Source: a virus
Lineage: Duplodnaviria; Heunggongvirae; Uroviricota; Caudoviricetes
Strand: one strand, 5' to 3'
Length of the DNA: 37,329 bases
Virus record (IMG/VR): IMGVR_UViG_2850808358_000008
Coordinates: 1-37,329 of that record
In this document: piece by piece, positions 3,367 through 26,079 of the stretch
Layout of the letters: each line of letters begins with the position of its first letter
How positions within the stretch are numbered: the stretch's first letter is position 1
Translations under genes and position numbers: made by a program
The notes under the pieces: generated by a model
The model's input: only the letters and a program-made list of their open reading frames with translations
What the model was told of the DNA's origin: nothing
Databases searched by the model: none

Positions 3367-3570
3367 ATGGCAATTAAGCATTTTCCCGTCGTTCGCTTTA
3401 CCTCCAGAGGACGCGAATACGAGGTCGACGAACGCCTGATTACCACTATCGACAAACACCGTTCAGAAAAGGATGCACATCACATCTATCTCACTGACGG
3501 CACTTACTTCTGCGCCACGAATGTGGTGCGGGTGAACCTTATCCGACAGGCACAGGAGTCACGCAGATGA
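3367..3570 (+). CDS. Hypothetical early protein (about 68 aa)
   Basis: ORF in the early operon; its stop overlaps the next start. Confidence 0.45.
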   Translation: MAIKHFPVVRFTSRGREYEVDERLITTIDKHRSEKDAHHIYLTDGTYFCATNVVRVNLIRQAQESRR

Positions 3571-3812
3571 CCATTCTGGACTACATCGCTGCCAATCCGG
3601 GTTGTAGCAGTGGAGAAATCGCCGCAGCACTGAATACCCCAACCACAGCCATTAATGCGGAGTTACGCCGACTCTGGCGCGACGGCTTAGTCATCAGAGA
3701 AGAACGCAAAACAGGCGGTCGGTTCTCTTACCAGGTAAACCCGATGCCGTTCGGGTGTGGCAACCCACTTACTCACATGTTTAACCAGCTACTGAAGGAA
3801 GCCAGAGCATGA
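3567..3812 (+). CDS. Small early protein, possible winged-helix DNA-binding protein
   Basis: 81-aa ORF, translationally coupled to its neighbours. Confidence 0.45.
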   Translation: MTILDYIAANPGCSSGEIAAALNTPTTAINAELRRLWRDGLVIREERKTGGRFSYQVNPMPFGCGNPLTHMFNQLLKEARA

Positions 3813-4108
3813 GCACCATCAACCACCAGGAACTACGCGAACTGGCGACTGACCTGCAACGAATGGCAACGCATCAAAAATTACTGGCATTTCGCGCAAT
3901 GCTCTCGCCGTCTGCTGTGCTGGCACTGCTGGATGAGCTGGAGCACGCCAGAACCATGGCTCCAGCCATTCGCCTGACGCTCCATCATGAAATCGCTGAT
4001 TTCTGCGCGACGTTGGAGGCGCCGGGCGAACCGGAAACGCCGGAAGCAACACAGCAAGAGCTGCTGCAACGCATTGACAAGGTTTTTGATTTTTTTCTGA
4101 ACCAGTAA
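3809..4108 (+). CDS. Hypothetical early protein (99 aa)
   Basis: ORF translationally coupled to the previous gene. Confidence 0.45.
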   Translation: MSTINHQELRELATDLQRMATHQKLLAFRAMLSPSAVLALLDELEHARTMAPAIRLTLHHEIADFCATLEAPGEPETPEATQQELLQRIDKVFDFFLNQ

Positions 4109-4216
4109 GAAACCAGAACATGCACACACAAAAAAACCGCTTGCCATGCCTCAATCGGTCAGGTTACATTTCCGCCGCACCTCATAAAACGGGTGCCGGG
4201 ATTTCCACCCCGCTGA

Positions 4217-4420
4217 CAACTACAGCGCACAACCGCGCCAGCGGTTTTTTTGTGCGTACTGTATCGCCACGTCTTTTTCGCACACGAATTATGGTGGGGC
4301 GTACGGGGCCGACTTCGGTCGGGCCGGGTTCTGTAGTTGCCGGTTGTGGAAACCCTGTACGTCTCACCACCCCGAGTTTTCCACCTCTGGATGGTGAGTT
4401 TTCAAAACTTGCAACTACAG
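4217..4420. repeat. Noncoding early region with three copies of the 9-mer CAACTACAG (two direct, one inverted) and a UUCG-loop hairpin
   Basis: CAACTACAG at 4217-4225 and 4412-4420, its reverse complement at 4331-4339, each next to a CACAACC-like motif. GGCCGAC-ttcg-GTCGGGCC hairpin near 4300-4320. Weak hairpin plus T7 run at 4232-4250. No convincing ORF across 4109-4430. Confidence 0.4.
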
Positions 4421-4430
4421 AGGCCACACC

Positions 4431-4661
4431 ATGGCAAACCGCAAACAGCACCGCGCTATCGCGGAGCGTCGTCACATCCAGACTGAAATCAACCGCAGAC
4501 TTTTCCGCGCATCACGCGTCGCGCAAATCATGCACATCAATATGCTGCATGAGCGCAGCCACGCACTATCAAACATCTATTCCGCCGCTGTTTTCAGCTA
4601 TCTGGCGGATGATCTGCACGAGCTTCAACAGCTCATCCAGCAGCAAAACAAACTCCATTAA
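4431..4661 (+). CDS. Hypothetical early protein (76 aa)
   Basis: ORF with a GAGG RBS overlapping the third CAACTACAG repeat. Confidence 0.4.
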   Translation: MANRKQHRAIAERRHIQTEINRRLFRASRVAQIMHINMLHERSHALSNIYSAAVFSYLADDLHELQQLIQQQNKLH

Positions 4662-4733
4662 TTCCTGTTCCGGGCCTTTCCTGCACCTTGCGGCGGGAGG
4701 CCTTCGCACATCTGTAACCAGAGGATTGCCGCA

Positions 4734-5099
4734 ATGATTCTCGCCAACGACTTTCTTGAATACCTGCTCAACACAGAGCGTGATCTTGCCGTTCGCGTGC
4801 GTGAACGTTATGACATGTACCTGAAATCCCTGCCTGTACCGCAGCTCGCTGACGGAAAGATTGTTATTGATGGTCGCTACATGATTGACAGCCACGAGGG
4901 AAATTACAGGCTTTACCGCATTGAAGGTGGCACCCCGTACGTTATTGGCATTTACCAGCGCCCATCCTCTGCAATCGTCGATGTGATTGCCGACAGCATC
5001 CGCATCACACATCGCCATGCCGACACAGAAGACACCGTGCTGGAAATTCAGCGGCTGGCTACAGTCTGCCGCGACACCCTGAATGGCATGACGAAGTAA
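4734..5099 (+). CDS. Hypothetical early protein (121 aa)
   Basis: ORF immediately upstream of A. Confidence 0.5.
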   Translation: MILANDFLEYLLNTERDLAVRVRERYDMYLKSLPVPQLADGKIVIDGRYMIDSHEGNYRLYRIEGGTPYVIGIYQRPSSAIVDVIADSIRITHRHADTEDTVLEIQRLATVCRDTLNGMTK

Positions 5100-5105
5100 A
5101 TCACT

Positions 5106-7726
5106 ATGACGGCAGAGTACATCAGGGACTGGCAACAACCGCGCCACGCAGTGGGGCGTGAAGGAACGGGGATCCCCGCTCCTGAATCCGCGCTTTCCTC
5201 CTGGCTGGATGCTTACCGGGCAGAGAACGAGCGCCGCCAGGAAATGGCTGATGCGGCGTTCTCCGCCACGCCGCTGGGCAACCTGATTAATAAAAGCCTG
5301 GACGCACAGGAAAAACAGGACAAAACCATCACACTGGCAGGAGACGCCAGAAAACAGGCACGCGGCGCGGTGGATGAAGCCATGGCCTCGCTGCGCCTGC
5401 TGCCGTCCTATCTGCGCGATCCGCTTATTCGCCACCTCTCCTTCCTGCGCAAAAAACAGGAAGCCGATCGCCAGAAAGGCAAAAAGAGCTGGCAGGCTGA
5501 ACGCTACGCGCGCGGAACCCTGCGCAAAATATTCGAACGTCTGGACCGCACCGACCACCGCTGGCTGACACGGGGTTATCGCGCCCTTGCCGGACGCGAA
5601 CGCCTGGACGATTTGCTTTACCTGCCGCAGCTCAACAAGCACCAGATACAGACGCTGGCCACCATGACGGCGGCGATGTTCAGCAGCACATTCGAAACAC
5701 TCTGTGATGGCCTTGGTGCCAGAGATGGCGAGCTGACCATGGAGGTGACGCTGAAGGCATATCAGATGCTGGCCCGCATGGCGTTACATCTGCACACCAT
5801 ACCGCCGCATTATGACGCACTGACAACAGACAAAGACCGGAGGAACGAACCGGACACGGAGCTGCTGCCGGGCGCAATCCTTCGCCTGACCTGTGCGGAC
5901 TGGTGGAAACGCAAACTGTGGCTGTTACGTTGCGAGTGGAGAGAAGAACAACTCCGCGCCGCCTGTCTGGTTTCCAGAAAAACATCGCCTTATCTGAGCC
6001 AGGACGCGTTAAGCGAGTTTCGCGCACAGCGCGAGAAAACACGCGATTTCCTGAAAAGTTTCATGCTGGAAAATGAAGACGGGTTCACGATTGATCTCGA
6101 GACAGTGTATTACGCGGGAGTAAGTAACCCGGTTCACCGTAAGGCAGAAATGATGGCCACCATGAAAGGGCGGAACTTATAGCCGAATCCCGTGGCGACA
6201 AAGCGGTGTTTCTGACTGTCACCTGCCCGTCAAAATACCACGCAACAACGGAGAACGGTCATCCGAACCCCAAATGGAACGGGGCTACCATGCGCGATTC
6301 CAGTGATTATCTGGTTAACACTTTTTTTAAAGCCGTTCGTAACAGACTGGACCGCAAGGGCCTGCGCTGGTATGGCATCCGCACGGTGGAGCCTCACCAT
6401 GACGGCACCGTGCACTGGCATATGATGGTCTTTGCCCATCCGGAAGAAATCGACAGCATCGTGACCATCGCCCGCGATATTGCCATTCGTGAAGACCGCC
6501 ACGAGCTGGGCGATGACATAACTCCGCGCTTTAAGGCGGAGTACGTCGACGGTTCGAAAGGTACGCCGACCAGCTATATCGCCACCTACATCGGAAAGAA
6601 CCTGGACAGCCACGCCGTGGATGGCATTGACCCGAAAACAGGCAAACCGCGCATCGACGACGAATCAGGAAAGACGATGGCAGAAAGCGTGGAACGCGCC
6701 ATCGGCTGGGCGCGCCTTCACCGGGTCCGCCAGTTCCAGTTCTTTGGCATCCCCTCCCGTCAGGTATGGCGTGAACTGCGCCGCCTTGCCAGCCAGATGG
6801 CACGCAACCCGGAAGGCCCGCAACGGCTGAAGGATGACGCAATGGATGCGGTTCTTGCTGCCGCTGATGCCGGGTGTTTTGCCACCTACATAGAGAAACA
6901 GGGCGGCGTACTTGTTCCACGTAAGGACTACCTGATTCGCACCGCCTACGACCTCGCAGATGAGCTGAACGATTACGGCGAACAGAGCGTACAGATTTAC
7001 GGGATCTGGTCGCCACTCATCGGGGAATCCTCCCGTGTGTGCACGCATCCGGACAACTGGAAGCTGGTAAGACGTAAACCGGAAGCGGAAGACAGCGCCC
7101 GCGAAAATGGTTTTGACCTTCAGGGCGGCCCTGCCGCCCCTTGGACTCGTGGCAATAACTGTCCCCGTGTACAGGAAACGAACAACAACGGGACAGAACA
7201 GCCGGAAGAACGGCCAGCACTGTGGCCGCAGCTCCCTGACGGCGTTGAAGTGAATGAATGGATGCGCTCACTGAAACGGCACGAACGCCGGGCGCTGATG
7301 CGTTCGCTGCGTGACAAACAGGCAAAAAACAGCAGTGCTGAAATGCAGAACTGGACACAGAGCCGCAAACAGCCACAGCCTTTGCCTGATAACCACGAGT
7401 TACTCGCTAAAGAATGGCGGGAGTCTGCTGAATCCCTTGGCCTGCATATCGGTGAACAGCAGATGCAGCACCTGTTACGGGGCGGCAGTCTGTACGTTGA
7501 CGGCAGCATCATTGCACCGCAGGGATTTGAAATTGTACGCAAACCGGATACCCGCCCGGACAGCCGAATCGCGCAGCTCTGGCAGCGCCTGAGCCGTAAT
7601 CACGGCGTAAGCAGCACGGAGATCCGCCATAACCCGGTCGCCAGCTATCTGGAACAGCTGGGGCATCAGACCCCGAAGCCGCTGCACGCCTGGCATCCAC
7701 ACTTCAGCAGGACCAGAACACCATGA
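5106..7726 (+). CDS. A: Rolling-circle replication initiator, P2 gpA-like, split by an apparent 1-bp deletion in a GGG run at 6168-6170
   Basis: Two ORFs (5106-6182 and 6206-7726) whose reading frame stays open across the junction (ERAELIAESRGDKAVFLTVTCPSKYH). The downstream part carries a metal-binding HWH motif and a YIATY double-tyrosine motif typical of P2 A-type nickases. Confidence 0.8.
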
Positions 7727-7926
7727 AAACCCCCGTTACCGTGCTTTCTGACATGCTGCGCGCCATCCGTGACGCAGAGCACGCACAGAGAATCAGTGAA
7801 ACCGCTGAACGCGCCCGCCGCAAAGCAGGCCTGCTGCGGGGTGGCCTGACCAGCGGAAACAAAAAACAGACAGAAACGGGATTCACAAAACCCGTGAATG
7901 AGCAAAAAACGCGCCGCGATATATGA
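7723..7926 (+). CDS. Hypothetical small protein, translationally coupled to A
   Basis: ATGA start/stop overlap with A. The 3' part overlaps the dyad repeats upstream of parM, so coding status is uncertain. Confidence 0.3.
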   Translation: MKTPVTVLSDMLRAIRDAEHAQRISETAERARRKAGLLRGGLTSGNKKQTETGFTKPVNEQKTRRDI

Positions 7927-8002: not shown

Positions 8003-8962
8003 ATGAAAATTTGTATCGACGACGGCTCCACCAACATCAAGCTGGCATGGACTGAGAACGGCGAACGCCGCAACGCCATCAGCCCGAACAGCTTCAAGTC
8101 GGAATGGTCTGCGCCGTTCGGTGGCTCGCAGCCTGCGAACTACATGCTTGATGGCGTGCGCTATGGTTTTGATCCGGTCAGCGATCGCTTTGTCCAGACG
8201 ACCGACACGCAATACCAGTACAGCGATGTGAATGTAATCGCCATTCACCACGCGCTGGTCAAATCAGGCATCACACCACAGGAGGTGGATGTGGTTGTCA
8301 CCCTGCCACTGAGCGAATATTTCGACACAAACGCACAGCCGGACATGGCCAACATCAACCGCAAAAAAGCGAACGTTATGCGCCCGGTGGAGTACCAGAA
8401 CGGTGAGGCATTCACTATCCGTAACGTGCGGGTTATGCCTGAATCCATTCCGGCTGGCTTTAAAGCACTGGCTGACATGAGTCCGTTTGAATCCCTGCTG
8501 ATTGTGGATTTAGGCGGAACCACGCTGGATGTGGCAAAGGTTCAGGGACAACTGGCAGGTATCAGCCAGGTGTTTTGCGATCCACACGTAGGCGTTTCTC
8601 TGATAGCCGATGCCGTACTGTCGGTGATGGCCACTAACGGTATGCGTACCAGTCACCATATCGCCAATACCATTATCGAACATCGCCGCGATGAAGCCTG
8701 GCTGCGCCAGCACATCCACAATGACGCGCATTACGCCAGCCTGATGACGGTTATTCGTGAAAAGGAAGAAACACTGAAACAACGCGTGATCCGCGCGCTG
8801 GCGGGTTTTTCGGGTTACGGGCGGGTGATGGTTGTCGGTGGCGGGGCGGAGATTGTGGCACCCGCTATCCGCGAAGCCTGCGGAGTTAATGCGACTTTCA
8901 TCGCGGACGGGGTGCCACAGTTTGCTCTGGTTAATGGGCTGTACGCAATGGACAAGGAGTAA
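8003..8962 (+). CDS. parM: Actin-like ATPase of the ParM/StbA family
   Basis: 319-aa ORF. N-terminus MKICIDDGSTNIKLAW and motifs DVNV(I/V)A(I/V)HHAL, MPESIPAG, DLGGTTLD and GGGAE match plasmid R1 ParM as recalled. Confidence 0.8.
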   Translation: MKICIDDGSTNIKLAWTENGERRNAISPNSFKSEWSAPFGGSQPANYMLDGVRYGFDPVSDRFVQTTDTQYQYSDVNVIAIHHALVKSGITPQEVDVVVTLPLSEYFDTNAQPDMANINRKKANVMRPVEYQNGEAFTIRNVRVMPESIPAGFKALADMSPFESLLIVDLGGTTLDVAKVQGQLAGISQVFCDPHVGVSLIADAVLSVMATNGMRTSHHIANTIIEHRRDEAWLRQHIHNDAHYASLMTVIREKEETLKQRVIRALAGFSGYGRVMVVGGGAEIVAPAIREACGVNATFIADGVPQFALVNGLYAMDKE

Positions 8963-23370: not shown

Positions 23371-25480
23371 ATGAGTACCACAACACGTAAATTTAAAACC
23401 GTTATCACCGATACGGGTGCCAAAAAATTAGCTCAGGCAGCCGCGCCAGATGGTAAGCCTGTCCGCCTGACTCATATGGCCGTGGGCGACGGTGGCGGCA
23501 CGCTGCCCACACCAGACAGTAAGCAGACCCGTCTGGTGCATGAGGTGTGGCGACACACTGTTAATCGCGTCATCCTGGACGCAACACATCAGAACCGCAT
23601 TATTGCGGAGCTGGTTATTCCTCCTGAAACGGGCGGATTCTGGATCCGGGAAATTGGTGTATTTGATGAGCACGGCGATTTAATCGCGGTGGGCAATACT
23701 GCCGAAAGTTACAAACCAGCCGTTGCCGAGGGGTCCGGACGTGCACAAACATTTCGCACCATTCTGACCGTATCCAGCACTGCCACCGTGGCGCTTACCG
23801 TGGATAACACCATGGTGATGGCCACAGTGGATTACGTGGATGACAAACTGAAAGAGCCTGAACAGTCACGACGTCACCCGGATGCCTCGCTGACCGCAAA
23901 AGGCTTTGTTCAACTCAGTAGCGCCACCAACAGCACGTCTGAAGCACTGGCCGCAACGCCGAAAGCGGTCAAGGCAGCCTATGACCTTGCTAACGGGAAA
24001 TATACCGCACAGGACGCCACTACAGCGCGGAAAGGACTTGTCCAGCTCAGTAGCGCCACCAACAGCGATTCAGAAACGCTGGCGGCAACACCAATGGCGG
24101 TAAAGGCAGCATATGACCTTGCTAACGGGAAATATACTGCGCAGGATGCCACCACAGCGCGGAAAGGCCTTGTCCAGCTCAGTAGCGCCACCAACAGCAC
24201 GTCTGAAACGCTGGCGGCAACACCAAAGTCGGTAAAGGCAGCCTATGACCTTGCTAACGGGAAATATACCGCTCAGGACGCTACGACAGCACAAAAAGGA
24301 ATTGTCCAGCTCAGTAGTGCAACCAACAGCGCATCTGAAACGCTTGCTGCGACACCGAAAGCTGTGAAAGCAGCTAATGACAATGCGAATGGTCGGGTAC
24401 CTTCTGCCCGTAAGGTGAATGGTAAGGCGCTTTCAGCGGATATAACACTGACACCGAAAGATATTGGTACGCTTAACTCAACAACAATGTCATTCAGAGG
24501 TGGTGCTGGTTGGTTCAAATTAGCAACGGTAACCATGCCACAGGCGAGTTCTGTTGTTTCAATTACGTTGATTGGTGGCGCTGGATATAACGTCGGTTCA
24601 CCTCAACAGGCAGGTATATCTGAAATTGTTTTGCGTGCAGGTAATGGTAATCCGAAGGGGATTACTGGTGCTTTATGGCAGCGCACATCGGCAGGGTTTA
24701 CAAATTTTGCCTGGGTCAATACATCTGGTGATACTTACGATATTTACGTTGCAATCGGAAATTATGCGACTGGTGTAAATATTCAATGGGATTATACCAG
24801 TAATGCCAGCGTAACGATTCATCCGTCACCAGCATATTCTGCTAATAAGCCGGAAGGGTTAACGGACGGTACAGTTTATTCACTCTATACGCCATCAGAG
24901 CAGTTTTATCCGCCTGGCGCACCAATCCCGTGGCCATCGGATACCGTTCCGTCTGGTTATGCCCTGATGCAGGGGCAGACTTTTGACAAATCTGCCTACC
25001 CGAAACTTGCAGTCGCTTATCCGTCAGGCGTGATCCCTGATATGCGTGGCTGGACGATTAAGGGCAAACCTGCCAGTGGTCGGGCCGTATTGTCTCAGGA
25101 ACAGGACGGCATTAAATCGCACACCCACAGCGCCAGCGCATCCAGTACGGATTTGGGGACGAAAACCACATCGTCGTTTGATTACGGAACTAAATCCACA
25201 AATAACACCGGAGCACATACACACAACTTTGCTTACAACAATACTTCAGCATACGCAGAAACTCCCGGTACCGGTGGTGGAATGCATGCAACTAACACAA
25301 GCAAGACAGCAAGTAATCGCGTATTAAGCGCAGGAGCTCATACTCACACAGTAGCAATAGGTGCGCATACACATACGCTCGCTATTGGTTCGCACACACA
25401 CCATTACCATTGCCGCTTATGGCAACGCGGAAAACACCGTAAAAAACATCGCATTTAACTATATTGTGAGGCTTGCATAA
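23371..25480 (+). CDS. H: Tail fibre protein, P2 gpH-like, with an apparent frame disruption in a (CA)n run near 25393-25402
   Basis: Large ORF after I with an N-terminus like P2 H, internal tandem repeats and a His/Thr-rich AHTHT stretch. The expected C-terminus ([26 protein letters not shown], stop 25478-25480 overlapping the G start) is in the +1 frame relative to the ORF as sequenced, which ends at 25458. Confidence 0.8.
23899..24380 (+). repeat. About 3.6 tandem copies of a 132-bp (44-aa) repeat inside H
   Basis: Units start at 23899, 24031, 24163 and 24295 and encode KG(F/L/I)VQLSSATNS(T/D/A)SE(A/T)LAATPK(A/S)[21 protein letters not shown] with a few substitutions. Confidence 0.85.
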
Positions 25481-26079
25481 TGGCATTCAGAATGAGTGAA
25501 CAACCACGAACCATAAAAATTTATAATCTGCTGGTCGGAACCAATGAATTTATTGGTGAAGGTGATGCATACATTCCACCTCATACAGGTCTGCCTGCAA
25601 ATAGTACTGATATTGCTCCGCCAGATATTCCAGCTGGCTTCGTGGCTGTTTTCAACAGTGATGGGGCGTCCTGGCATCTCGTTGAAGATCATCGTGGTAA
25701 AACGGTTTATGACGTGGCTTCCGGCGACGCGTTATTTATTTCTGAACTCGGTCCGTTACCGGAAAATGTTACCTGGTTGTCGCCGGGAGGGGAATATCAG
25801 AAGTGGAACGGCACAGCCTGGGTGAAGGATACGGAAGCAGAAAAACTGTTCCGGATCCGGGAGGCAGAAGAAACAAAAAACAGCCTGATGCAGGTAGCCA
25901 GTGAGCATATTGCGCCACTTCAGGATGCTGTAGATCTGGAAATCGCAACGGAGGAAGAAATCTCGTTGCTGGAAGCCTGGAAGAAGTATCGAGTGCTGCT
26001 GAACCGTGTTGATACATCAAGAGCACCGGATATTGAGTGGCCAGCTTCCCCAGTGGAATCAAGGAGTAAACAAGCATAA
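25480..26079 (+). CDS. G: Tail fibre assembly chaperone, P2 gpG-like
   Basis: 199-aa ORF whose start overlaps the expected H stop (TAATG). Confidence 0.8.

Follow-up and report, generated by a model that had tools for sequence, protein, structure and literature searches.

An early-operon island of a P88-like P2-type prophage as a probable IsrK-C4 RNA immunity cassette

P4's IsrK-C4 immunity system has been published, and related systems are described in P1, P7, N15, and lambdoid prophages (PMC3632133; Barquist et al.). According to a 2025 review, c4 represses translation of ant and underlies the heteroimmunity of P1 and P7 (PMC12197685). IsrK is a structural homologue of SeqA and the ~80-nt RNA STnc1160 is CI-like, and the analogy of this pair with SeqA/CI has been discussed (PMC4825925). 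Hershko-Shalev et al. reported in 2016 that IsrK of Gifsy-1 has its own promoter and a leaky terminator, that STnc1160 (~80 nt) is processed from read-through transcripts, that IsrK pairs with this region, and that IsrK acting in trans switches on translation of the downstream antirepressor (PMC4825925). Transcription of both IsrK and STnc1160 is high in lysogens (PMC7067206). The published models differ in sign and output, with repression by C4 or CI in P1 and P4 versus activation by IsrK in Gifsy-1. For P2-like or Xuanwuvirus phages, our literature search found nothing on a C4/IsrK cassette.

The window analyzed here, meaning the whole stretch of 37,329 nucleotides, is a P88-group (Xuanwuvirus) prophage of the P2 type. 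In its early operon, an intergenic gap of ~320 bp (4109-4430) interrupts consecutive genes on one strand, with the stop of ORF 3809-4108 as its left edge and the ATG at 4431 as its right edge. A sequence-only reading had pointed out this gap as an island with no convincing ORF; the gap is real, while the absence of an ORF needs the qualifier that a 205-aa ORF (4120-4737) crosses it. With a probability of roughly 0.88, the island is an IsrK-C4 RNA secondary-immunity cassette of the P4 seqA-CI-seqC or P1 c4 type. The 9-mer repeats within it are the loop of a C4 antisense RNA (inverted copy, b') and two RNA targets (direct copies, b1 and b2). The parts of the cassette, their order, the fold, and the complementarities with their evolutionary upkeep are direct observations of this analysis. 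On the plus strand a predicted promoter (4141-4170) is followed by an IsrK-like RNA (4177-4251), a C4 RNA (4287-4374), the downstream targets (4378-4422), a gene for an epsilon-like protein (4431-4661), and replication gene A from 5106. The individual features are as follows.

4141-4170, plus strand: predicted sigma-70-like promoter of the cassette, with -35 TTGCCA at 4141-4146, an 18-nt spacer, and -10 TACATT at 4165-4170.
4177-4251, plus strand: IsrK/seqA-like small RNA, consisting of a 5' hairpin, a hairpin with target a1, target b1, and an intrinsic terminator.
4202-4208, plus strand: target a1 (TTTCCAC), the complement of C4 segment a', in an IsrK hairpin (inverted repeat I6).
4217-4225, plus strand: target b1, the first direct copy of CAACTACAG, inside IsrK.
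4231-4251, plus strand: IsrK intrinsic terminator, with stem AACCGC/GCGGTT, loop GCCA, and then T7, found by a terminator scan.
4287-4374, plus strand: C4/CI-like antisense RNA, with the mature RNA predicted at roughly 4291-4370.
4329-4339, plus strand: recognition segment b' (UUCUGUAGUUG) in the loop of hairpin 2, holding the inverted 9-mer copy.
4346-4352, plus strand: recognition segment a' (GUGGAAA), single stranded between hairpin 2 and the closing stem.
4378-4384, plus strand: target a2 (TTTCCAC), lying shortly after the 3' end of C4 (inverted repeats I16 and I3).
4412-4422, plus strand: target b2, the second direct 9-mer copy plus AG, overlapping the Shine-Dalgarno sequence AGAGG at 4419-4423.
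4431-4661, plus strand: putatively regulated gene for a 76-aa homologue of P4 epsilon ("derepression protein," an antirepressor), assigned by Pfam PF25738 and BLASTP.
4734-5099, plus strand: orf121, a downstream gene placed in the regulated unit by gene order.
5106 to ~7926, plus strand: replication gene A, with two 1-nt deletions, likewise placed in the regulated unit by gene order.

The repeats that drew attention to the island are present as described: three exact copies of CAACTACAG, two direct (4217-4225 and 4412-4420) and one inverted (4331-4339). These are the only exact matches in the 37.3-kb window and all lie inside 204 nt, versus an expectation of 0.18 matches, and none of 100 shuffled sequences reaches three; with one mismatch allowed, the 12 matches found against 6.1 expected are unremarkable. 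The sequence-only reading had placed each copy beside CACAACC, which holds for copies 1 and 2, while copy 3 is followed by CACACC. Its UUCG hairpin is also there (CCGAC-UUCG-GUCGG, 4309-4322), as is the overlap of the third repeat with the ribosome-binding site of the next gene, where the repeat runs into the Shine-Dalgarno AGAGG 8 nt ahead of the ATG at 4431. Its terminator-like element exists at 4231-4251; rather than weak, it is a decent intrinsic terminator. That reading made no mention of the second repeated segment (TTTCCAC/GTGGAAA), the cassette promoter, or the identity of the downstream gene, and it gave weight to CACAACC, which does not covary.

Which of the proposed functions, operator, iteron-like element, or small RNA, applies to the island? 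Two Rfam RNA families match it, and only the small RNA survives of the three. The Rfam scan covered the whole window at gathering thresholds, and a local rerun gave the same C4 result. The isrK family (RF01394) scores 63.6 bits at 4177-4251 (gathering score, 50; E = 1.7e-11), over model positions 1 to 77 of 77, and this segment folds at -26.1 kcal/mol (z = -3.5). As a member of that family, the RNA would be expected to bind Hfq. The terminator at its 3' end was detected independently of the Rfam match and is unchanged in 19 relatives. CACAACC at 4228-4234 is the 5' arm of this terminator. The c4-a1b1 family (RF03163) has no match in the window even at E <= 1, and a search of the window for tRNA and tmRNA found none.

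The predicted promoter TTGCCA-18-TACATT matches 9 of 12 consensus positions, ends 6 nt before the start of IsrK, and is the sole promoter-like site within 3800-4800, with transcription predicted to start near 4177. Both hexamers are invariant in 18 P88-like variants while the DNA upstream of ~4124 differs among them, and therefore the cassette has its own conserved (predicted) promoter and its left border is defined. The position with respect to the RNA genes is that of PLE in P4, of the N15 promoter, and of P1c4 in P1. As for SOS control of the cassette, the only LexA-like box (CTGT-N8-ACAG) lies inside gene A, and 30 of 100 shuffled sequences hold at least one, so that this candidate was dropped. 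A 21-nt stretch just upstream of the predicted promoter (4124-4144) is complementary to the terminator 3' arm and U-tract (4237-4257), at -27.4 kcal/mol. In N15 (-16.7 kcal/mol) and P4 (-18.9 kcal/mol) only weak and different pairings are seen.

The C4 family (RF01695) scores 80.5 bits at 4287-4374 (gathering score, 45; E = 2e-14), over the full model (positions 1 to 87 of 87). A closing stem of 17 bp (4292-4308 with 4353-4369) encloses the UUCG hairpin (4309-4322), a second hairpin with a stem of 4323-4327 with 4340-4344 and a 12-nt loop, and then 8 nt of single strand. The minimum free energy (MFE) fold of 4287-4374 is the consensus structure of the family, at -45.3 kcal/mol with z scores of -3.4 to -4.9. 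In a cross-family alignment of 13 sequences (P88-like, N15, P1, and P4-like, with variant L033 counting only as gaps), 13 of the 27 pairs of the C4 fold show compensatory changes. The segment GTGGAAA/TTTCCAC repeats the three-copy layout of the 9-mer, as a', a1, and a2. An alternative hairpin (4363-4376 with 4385-4398) holds target a2 in its loop, and the MFE fold of the read-through transcript has the C4 loop and the b2 site of the leader paired in cis. The accessible part of C4 forms duplexes of -35.7 kcal/mol with the leader and -34.0 kcal/mol with IsrK, and none of 500 shuffles is as good. Comparable energies also occur at unrelated places in the window (near 20.3 kb, 15.9 kb, and 18.7 kb), and therefore duplex energy is not used as evidence of specificity.

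The evolutionary upkeep of the complementarities comes from an alignment of 19 P88-like variants with a near-constant backbone (89% mean column identity). The recognition segments change jointly in all three copies, which is the outcome of the covariation check against relatives that the sequence-only reading had proposed. On the IsrK side, compensatory changes occur in 4 of 7 pairs of the a1:a' helix and 7 of 9 pairs of b1:b', with 99.2% and 100% of cells paired; on the leader side the counts are 4 of 7 pairs for a2:a' (100% paired) and 6 of 11 for b2:b' (96.2% paired). The covarying pairs total 11 for a1:a' plus b1:b' and 10 for a2:a' plus b2:b'. When the partners are slid by 1 to 3 columns, pairing falls to ~40%, and none of 500 column shuffles reaches the observed covariation score. 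Column-wise pair counts were preferred to a "longest helix" statistic of own versus cross pairing, a noisy measure since the invariant UUC/GAGG parts find partners everywhere. In all variants, the UUC that stays constant in the C4 loop forms pairs with the Shine-Dalgarno sequence (alignment pairs 159-161 with 252-254). The suggested tie between the third copy and control of the next ribosome-binding site is borne out, with b2 covering the Shine-Dalgarno sequence of 4431-4661.

CACAACC was also considered as a third recognition element and rejected: against GGTTGTG, 77% of cells in the relatives are paired with no compensatory change. The C4 side varies without compensation, and the IsrK side is invariant because it is the 5' arm of the terminator.

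The P88-like variants carry six a types and eight b types in mixed combinations on one backbone. For example, b' is CUGUAGUUG in the window and CUUUGGUUG in the L014 type, for which the fitting b2 would be CAACCAAAG. The six specificity segments hold a disproportionate share of the variation: 40 of their 64 columns vary, versus 39 of the 200 columns elsewhere (Fisher p = 4e-10). Among viral contigs, a pattern scan extends the diversity to at least 80 unique variants; across at least 79 contigs there are at least 30 loop types and at least 15 single-strand types, every one of them with targets that match it at constant offsets.

These patterns bear on the idea that the repeats are protein-binding sites, either an operator for an early-gene product or iterons for a replication protein. 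A 9-mer that occurs three times in 204 nt, once at the start of a gene, would suit such sites, and DNA-binding proteins are encoded nearby, such as the MarR-like product of 3567-3812. However, the inverted copy is the loop of an RNA hairpin that fits the Rfam C4 model, and the copies vary yet stay complementary, including through G-U pairs (CUGCGUUUG with CAAACGTAG) that are meaningful only in RNA. Eight 9-mer types sit on a near-identical backbone with near-identical neighbor proteins, so that a binding protein would need to have coevolved repeatedly. We regard protein-binding sites as an extremely improbable explanation of the repeats.

Is the island instead protein coding? Either ORF 4120-4737 (205 aa) would be a genuine gene, or else a short ORF resembling orf45 would be translated from the ATG in AATTATGG (4291) and be coupled to the gene at 4734 via an ATGA overlap. 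The long ORF is open in most relatives and its stop overlaps the ATG at 4734; it is an annotated CDS in P88_4B11, and the ORF is annotated as one in many Stx phages as well. It matches Pfam PF10554 ("Ash protein family") with 27.2 bits against a cut-off of 26, as well as PHROGs 995, 821, and 6928 ("transcriptional regulator"), and the Gifsy-1 orf45 over the C4-like RNA has been seen as a tagged protein (PMC4825925). Sequence variation tells a different story: over 4177-4430 it is flat across codon positions in the 205-aa frame (25/27/25), and from 4431 on, a third-position excess (24/23/45 over 4431-4658) fits another frame, that of the epsilon-like gene. Frame-shifting indels run over dozens of codons in several relatives (L011 and L068, with +1 followed by -1, and L034, L041, and L094). 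The Pfam and PHROG matches cover exactly the isrK-plus-C4 nucleotides, and PF10554 also matches the obsolete "cI protein" CDS of P4, which overlies the CI RNA. This indicates that RNA genes, conceptually translated, underlie PF10554 and several PHROG families labeled "transcriptional regulator," and a coding role for the island itself is very improbable. PF10554 also matches N15 gene 32.

The gene behind b2 is an epsilon homologue. Its 76-aa product matches PF25738 with a modest 31.8 bits against a cut-off of 27, over the core of the profile only (positions 16 to 71 of 95), versus 170 bits for P4 epsilon itself; BLASTP aligns it with P4 epsilon at 32% identity over 50 aa (E = 3e-8). It is 100% identical to the "derepression protein" of P88. 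NCBIfam has no match for the epsilon-like protein, orf121, or the 205-aa ORF, and orf121 shows no homology to P4 ORF151, the candidate tried for it (E = 0.13). No ORF at the a2/b2 target has an Icd or Ant match in Pfam, PHROGs, or NCBIfam, and no Icd/Kil-type ORF lies between C4 and the antirepressor gene in the window, unlike in P1, P4, and N15. Therefore, the translational-coupling and polarity step of those three phages may not apply here.

How might the cassette work? Transcription, processing, and repression in this phage are carried over from the homologous systems, and by analogy with P1, P4, N15, and Gifsy-1, transcription from the cassette promoter would either end at the IsrK terminator, yielding an IsrK small RNA of ~75 nt, or read through. 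The read-through transcripts would be processed, as in the related phages, to a stable C4 RNA of ~80 nt; for the C4 family, RNase P makes the 5' end and the stable product measures ~77-80 nt. By pairing with a2 and b2, C4 would block translation of the epsilon-like antirepressor, and it probably would also lower transcription into orf121 and gene A, by polarity or premature termination. IsrK, which carries a copy of the target, could titrate C4 or compete with the in-cis pairing and so relieve the repression. The variable a and b segments would set the specificity of immunity, again on the model of the known systems.

The same parts might have a different main output, with C4 pairing to a1/b1 and a2/b2 on the nascent transcript causing premature termination of the downstream block, including gene A, rather than mainly occluding the ribosome-binding site. 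The cassette falls into the P4/N15 subtype (with isrK in place of c4-a1b1, a terminator directly after b1, and an epsilon homologue downstream), for which such a mechanism has been summarized in P4 (PMC4825925, PMC3632133), and gene A starts 450 nt 3' of the epsilon-like gene. Against this, b2 and the constant loop UUC pair directly with the Shine-Dalgarno sequence in every variant, and a search of the plus strand of 3800-4800 found no second intrinsic terminator. Premature termination as the main output is less likely than not. It and a translational block are not mutually exclusive outputs, and orf121 and gene A may feel polarity from the cassette. In P1, the translational block reportedly leads to Rho-dependent polarity (Biere, Citron and Schuster, 1992).

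The Gifsy-1 model would shift the emphasis to the other RNA. IsrK would be the dominant factor, a trans activator that opens an inactive fold of the read-through mRNA for translation of the antirepressor, and C4 would be mainly a processing by-product. This mechanism was demonstrated by experiment at the homologous Gifsy-1 locus (PMC4825925), targets a1 and b1 are kept by covariation as strictly as a2 and b2, and the C4 loop pairs in cis with the leader in the predicted fold of the read-through transcript. However, the C4/CI RNA is the immunity factor in the genetics of P1, P7, and P4 (P1 annotation; PMC3632133; PMC12197685), and the extensive, stable, and covarying C4 fold is hard to square with a by-product. 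An IsrK-dominated mode of action is unlikely for this locus, and repression by C4 is our preferred reading of the cassette.

The RNA region of the window is 100% identical to that of phage P88, which is mitomycin inducible (PMC5285337). The C repressor gene and gene A are frameshifted in the window, and therefore this copy may belong to a nonfunctional prophage; the window has 1-nt deletions at about 1320, 6171, and 7659, which may stem from prophage decay or from errors of assembly. The cassette with the epsilon-like gene is found in 1,285 of 5,426 complete E. coli genomes. The isrK-C4 tandem is also found in P88_4B11, Shae_phiSM, N15, and P4, and in N15 and in Stx, Salmonella, and Yersinia phages it lies ahead of Rha/Ant-type antirepressors. 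One GenBank record carries "C4 antisense RNA" and "isrK" side by side. In RefSeq the RNA part of the cassette, the ~320-bp gap, is blank, and in some phage records spurious CDSs over it are named "peptidase," "Rha protein," "regulatory protein," "Ash family," or "transcriptional repressor."

The value of this assignment is mainly housekeeping, since it accounts for a gap of ~320 bp that is left blank in RefSeq and miscalled as a CDS elsewhere. It also means that helper-type P2-like phages share an RNA immunity device and an epsilon-type antirepressor with satellite P4. The diversified specificity segments are relevant to heteroimmunity and possibly to helper-satellite conflict, though the principle has been known since P1/P7 c4 and P4 CI. 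A bolder and doubtful suggestion is that the P88-type cassette, placed within the Pe early operon just ahead of the epsilon-type antirepressor and gene A, does not merely duplicate the device of P4 or P1: its IsrK terminator might be promoter selective owing to the complementarity of 4124-4144 with 4237-4257, with transcripts from Pe reading through and those from the cassette promoter stopping; its at least 6 by 8 types might confer RNA-based heteroimmunity among helpers; and helper and satellite might cross-regulate each other when their types match. Such cross-regulation is conceivable since these RNA families, along with an epsilon homologue, also serve P4-like satellites.

Among the closest described systems, P4 shares its layout with the window. 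In P4 an isrK-like element (8692-8615) is followed by C4 (8507-8420), with the promoter PLE directly upstream; a1 and b1 (GTGAGAA and TTCACAGG) lie inside the IsrK-like element ahead of an intrinsic terminator; a2 follows closely after the RNA, and b2 is placed on the next ORF's Shine-Dalgarno sequence; and an epsilon-family gene and then replication genes are found downstream, an arrangement like that of the window, whose promoter is a predicted one. In P4, however, an Icd/Kil-type ORF whose ribosome-binding site is masked by b2 stands between CI and epsilon, whereas here b2 masks the epsilon-like gene directly. The spacer between the IsrK-like element and CI/C4 is ~105 nt in P4 versus 35 nt here, and epsilon has 95 aa in P4 versus 76 aa here (32% identical). 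The host element is a satellite in the case of P4, whereas here it is a helper-type P2-like phage with the cassette inside the Pe early operon.

The immI region of P1 and P7 shares the family and fold of C4 and the use of two recognition segments, each with an upstream (a1, b1) and a downstream (a2, b2) match. The curated annotation of P1 gives the same order as here (promoter, a1, b1, c4, a2, b2, and the next gene, which is icd in P1), and in both P1 and the window the downstream loop target abuts GAGGCC(N6)ATG. Segment variation defines heteroimmunity in P1/P7, and P1-like contigs hold many types. The upstream element of P1 is c4-a1b1 (RF03163), whereas that of the window is isrK; the regulated genes of P1 are icd and ant1/2 rather than an epsilon homologue, and P1 has a second promoter controlled by C1. 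The hallmark of P1 immI, an Icd-type ORF at a2/b2 followed by Ant1/Ant2, is absent from the window.

The IsrK-orf45 (STnc1160)-anrP locus of Gifsy-1 resembles the window in its isrK-family RNA, in a downstream RNA of ~80 nt (predicted in the window) complementary to IsrK, and in the antirepressor gene that follows. It differs in its Rha/AnrP-type antirepressor, in its lambdoid prophage background, and in its model of IsrK activation via orf45 translation. The orf45-equivalent frame of the window runs for 148 codons across the epsilon-like gene with no coding signature. In the anti-immunity region of N15 (CA RNA-icd-antA/antB), isrK and C4 exceed the Rfam thresholds and are accompanied by a promoter, a terminator, and a/b targets that match, as in the window with its predicted promoter, and its a' type (GTTGAGAAC) is common to the P88-like variant L033. 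Unlike the window, N15 has an Icd-like ORF and Ant-type antirepressors downstream, and it is another type of genome, a linear plasmid-prophage. The IsrK-C4 device is thus already well known from P1/P7 c4 and P4 CI, and the copy in the window is an unannotated member of this group. What may be new is its presence in helper-type P2-like phages with an epsilon homologue, the extent to which its specificity has diversified, and a possible promoter-selective terminator.

A 21-nt inverted repeat, 90% complementary, joins positions 4124-4144, just upstream of the promoter of the isrK-C4 cassette (the IsrK RNA gene plus the C4 antisense RNA gene), to positions 4237-4257, which comprise the 3' arm of the IsrK intrinsic terminator and its T-run. 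When the RNA enters from upstream, the long-range helix is predicted to supplant the terminator hairpin in the minimum free energy fold (-50.2 kcal/mol, z = -4.5). By way of this helix, transcripts from Pe, the early-operon promoter upstream, could read through the terminator. In one related contig, L094, the arms of the repeat lack one A and one T between them. N15 and P4 show only a weak counterpart of this pairing or none.

The cassette itself varies among relatives. In a P88-like variant (L009 5191-5454), the C4 target inside IsrK, a1, reads ATTCTCAC and is mismatched to the C4 recognition segment a' (GTGGAAA), while a2, the target in the leader of the epsilon-like gene, matches a'. This variant looks like a recombinant, and the mismatch suggests that a1 is under less constraint than a2. 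A second C4-like RNA gene lies directly upstream of the first in L112 (324-587, - strand), giving tandem genes, and L108 (2671-2934) carries the 5' half of C4 followed by unrelated sequence. The gene abutting the left border also differs, as comparison with L003 2572-3123 and L126 303-1133 revealed.

Neighbors at the left border of the cassette
Window, ~4124: Ead-like gene
Shae_phiSM: extra "DNA binding protein" gene
P88: "lipoprotein/serine protease"

That the neighbor at this border changes from relative to relative suggests a hotspot for recombination or cargo within the early operon.

When translated, the isrK-C4 RNA region is matched by protein families, namely, Pfam PF10554 ("Ash protein family") and PHROGs 995, 821, and 6928 ("transcriptional regulator/repressor").

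Stretches matched by PF10554 or the PHROGs
Window: 4120-4737
P4 (L127): 8168-8584, - strand
N15 (L002): 2600-2890

The label given to this stretch differs between phage records: peptidase, Rha, antirepressor, regulatory protein, and Ash family all occur. Another RNA match, Rfam IS009 (25823-26021, 218 bits), falls entirely within ORF 25480-26079 and looks like coding sequence rather than an independent sRNA. This ORF, which directly follows a 695-amino-acid tail-fiber ORF, is probably a tail fiber assembly gene.

Two genes of the window are frameshifted relative to P88_4B11. The immunity repressor gene C (1102-1466, - strand) is split by a 1-nt deletion at ~1320 (CCC to CC).

ORFs of the split gene C
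1314-1466, - strand: residues 1-28
1102-1341, - strand: residues 29-100

In replication gene A (5106-7926), 1-nt deletions at ~6171 and ~7659 leave three separate ORFs; identity is otherwise 95%. The deletions in gene A together with the frameshift in gene C suggest either a decaying prophage or an assembly prone to indels. After gene A, this integrated P2-like prophage carries a ParM/StbA-type actin-like plasmid segregation gene (8003-8962; Pfam PF06406, 275 bits, and PF21523, 229 bits).

In the closing stem of C4, the 3' strand (4363-4376) can instead pair with GGAUGGUGAG downstream (4385-4398), an arrangement that places a2 in a hairpin loop. An equivalent alternative pairing was seen by eye in N15 and P1. 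The alternative pairing in the window resembles structures A and B, the alternative structures described for the Salmonella prophage Gifsy-1.
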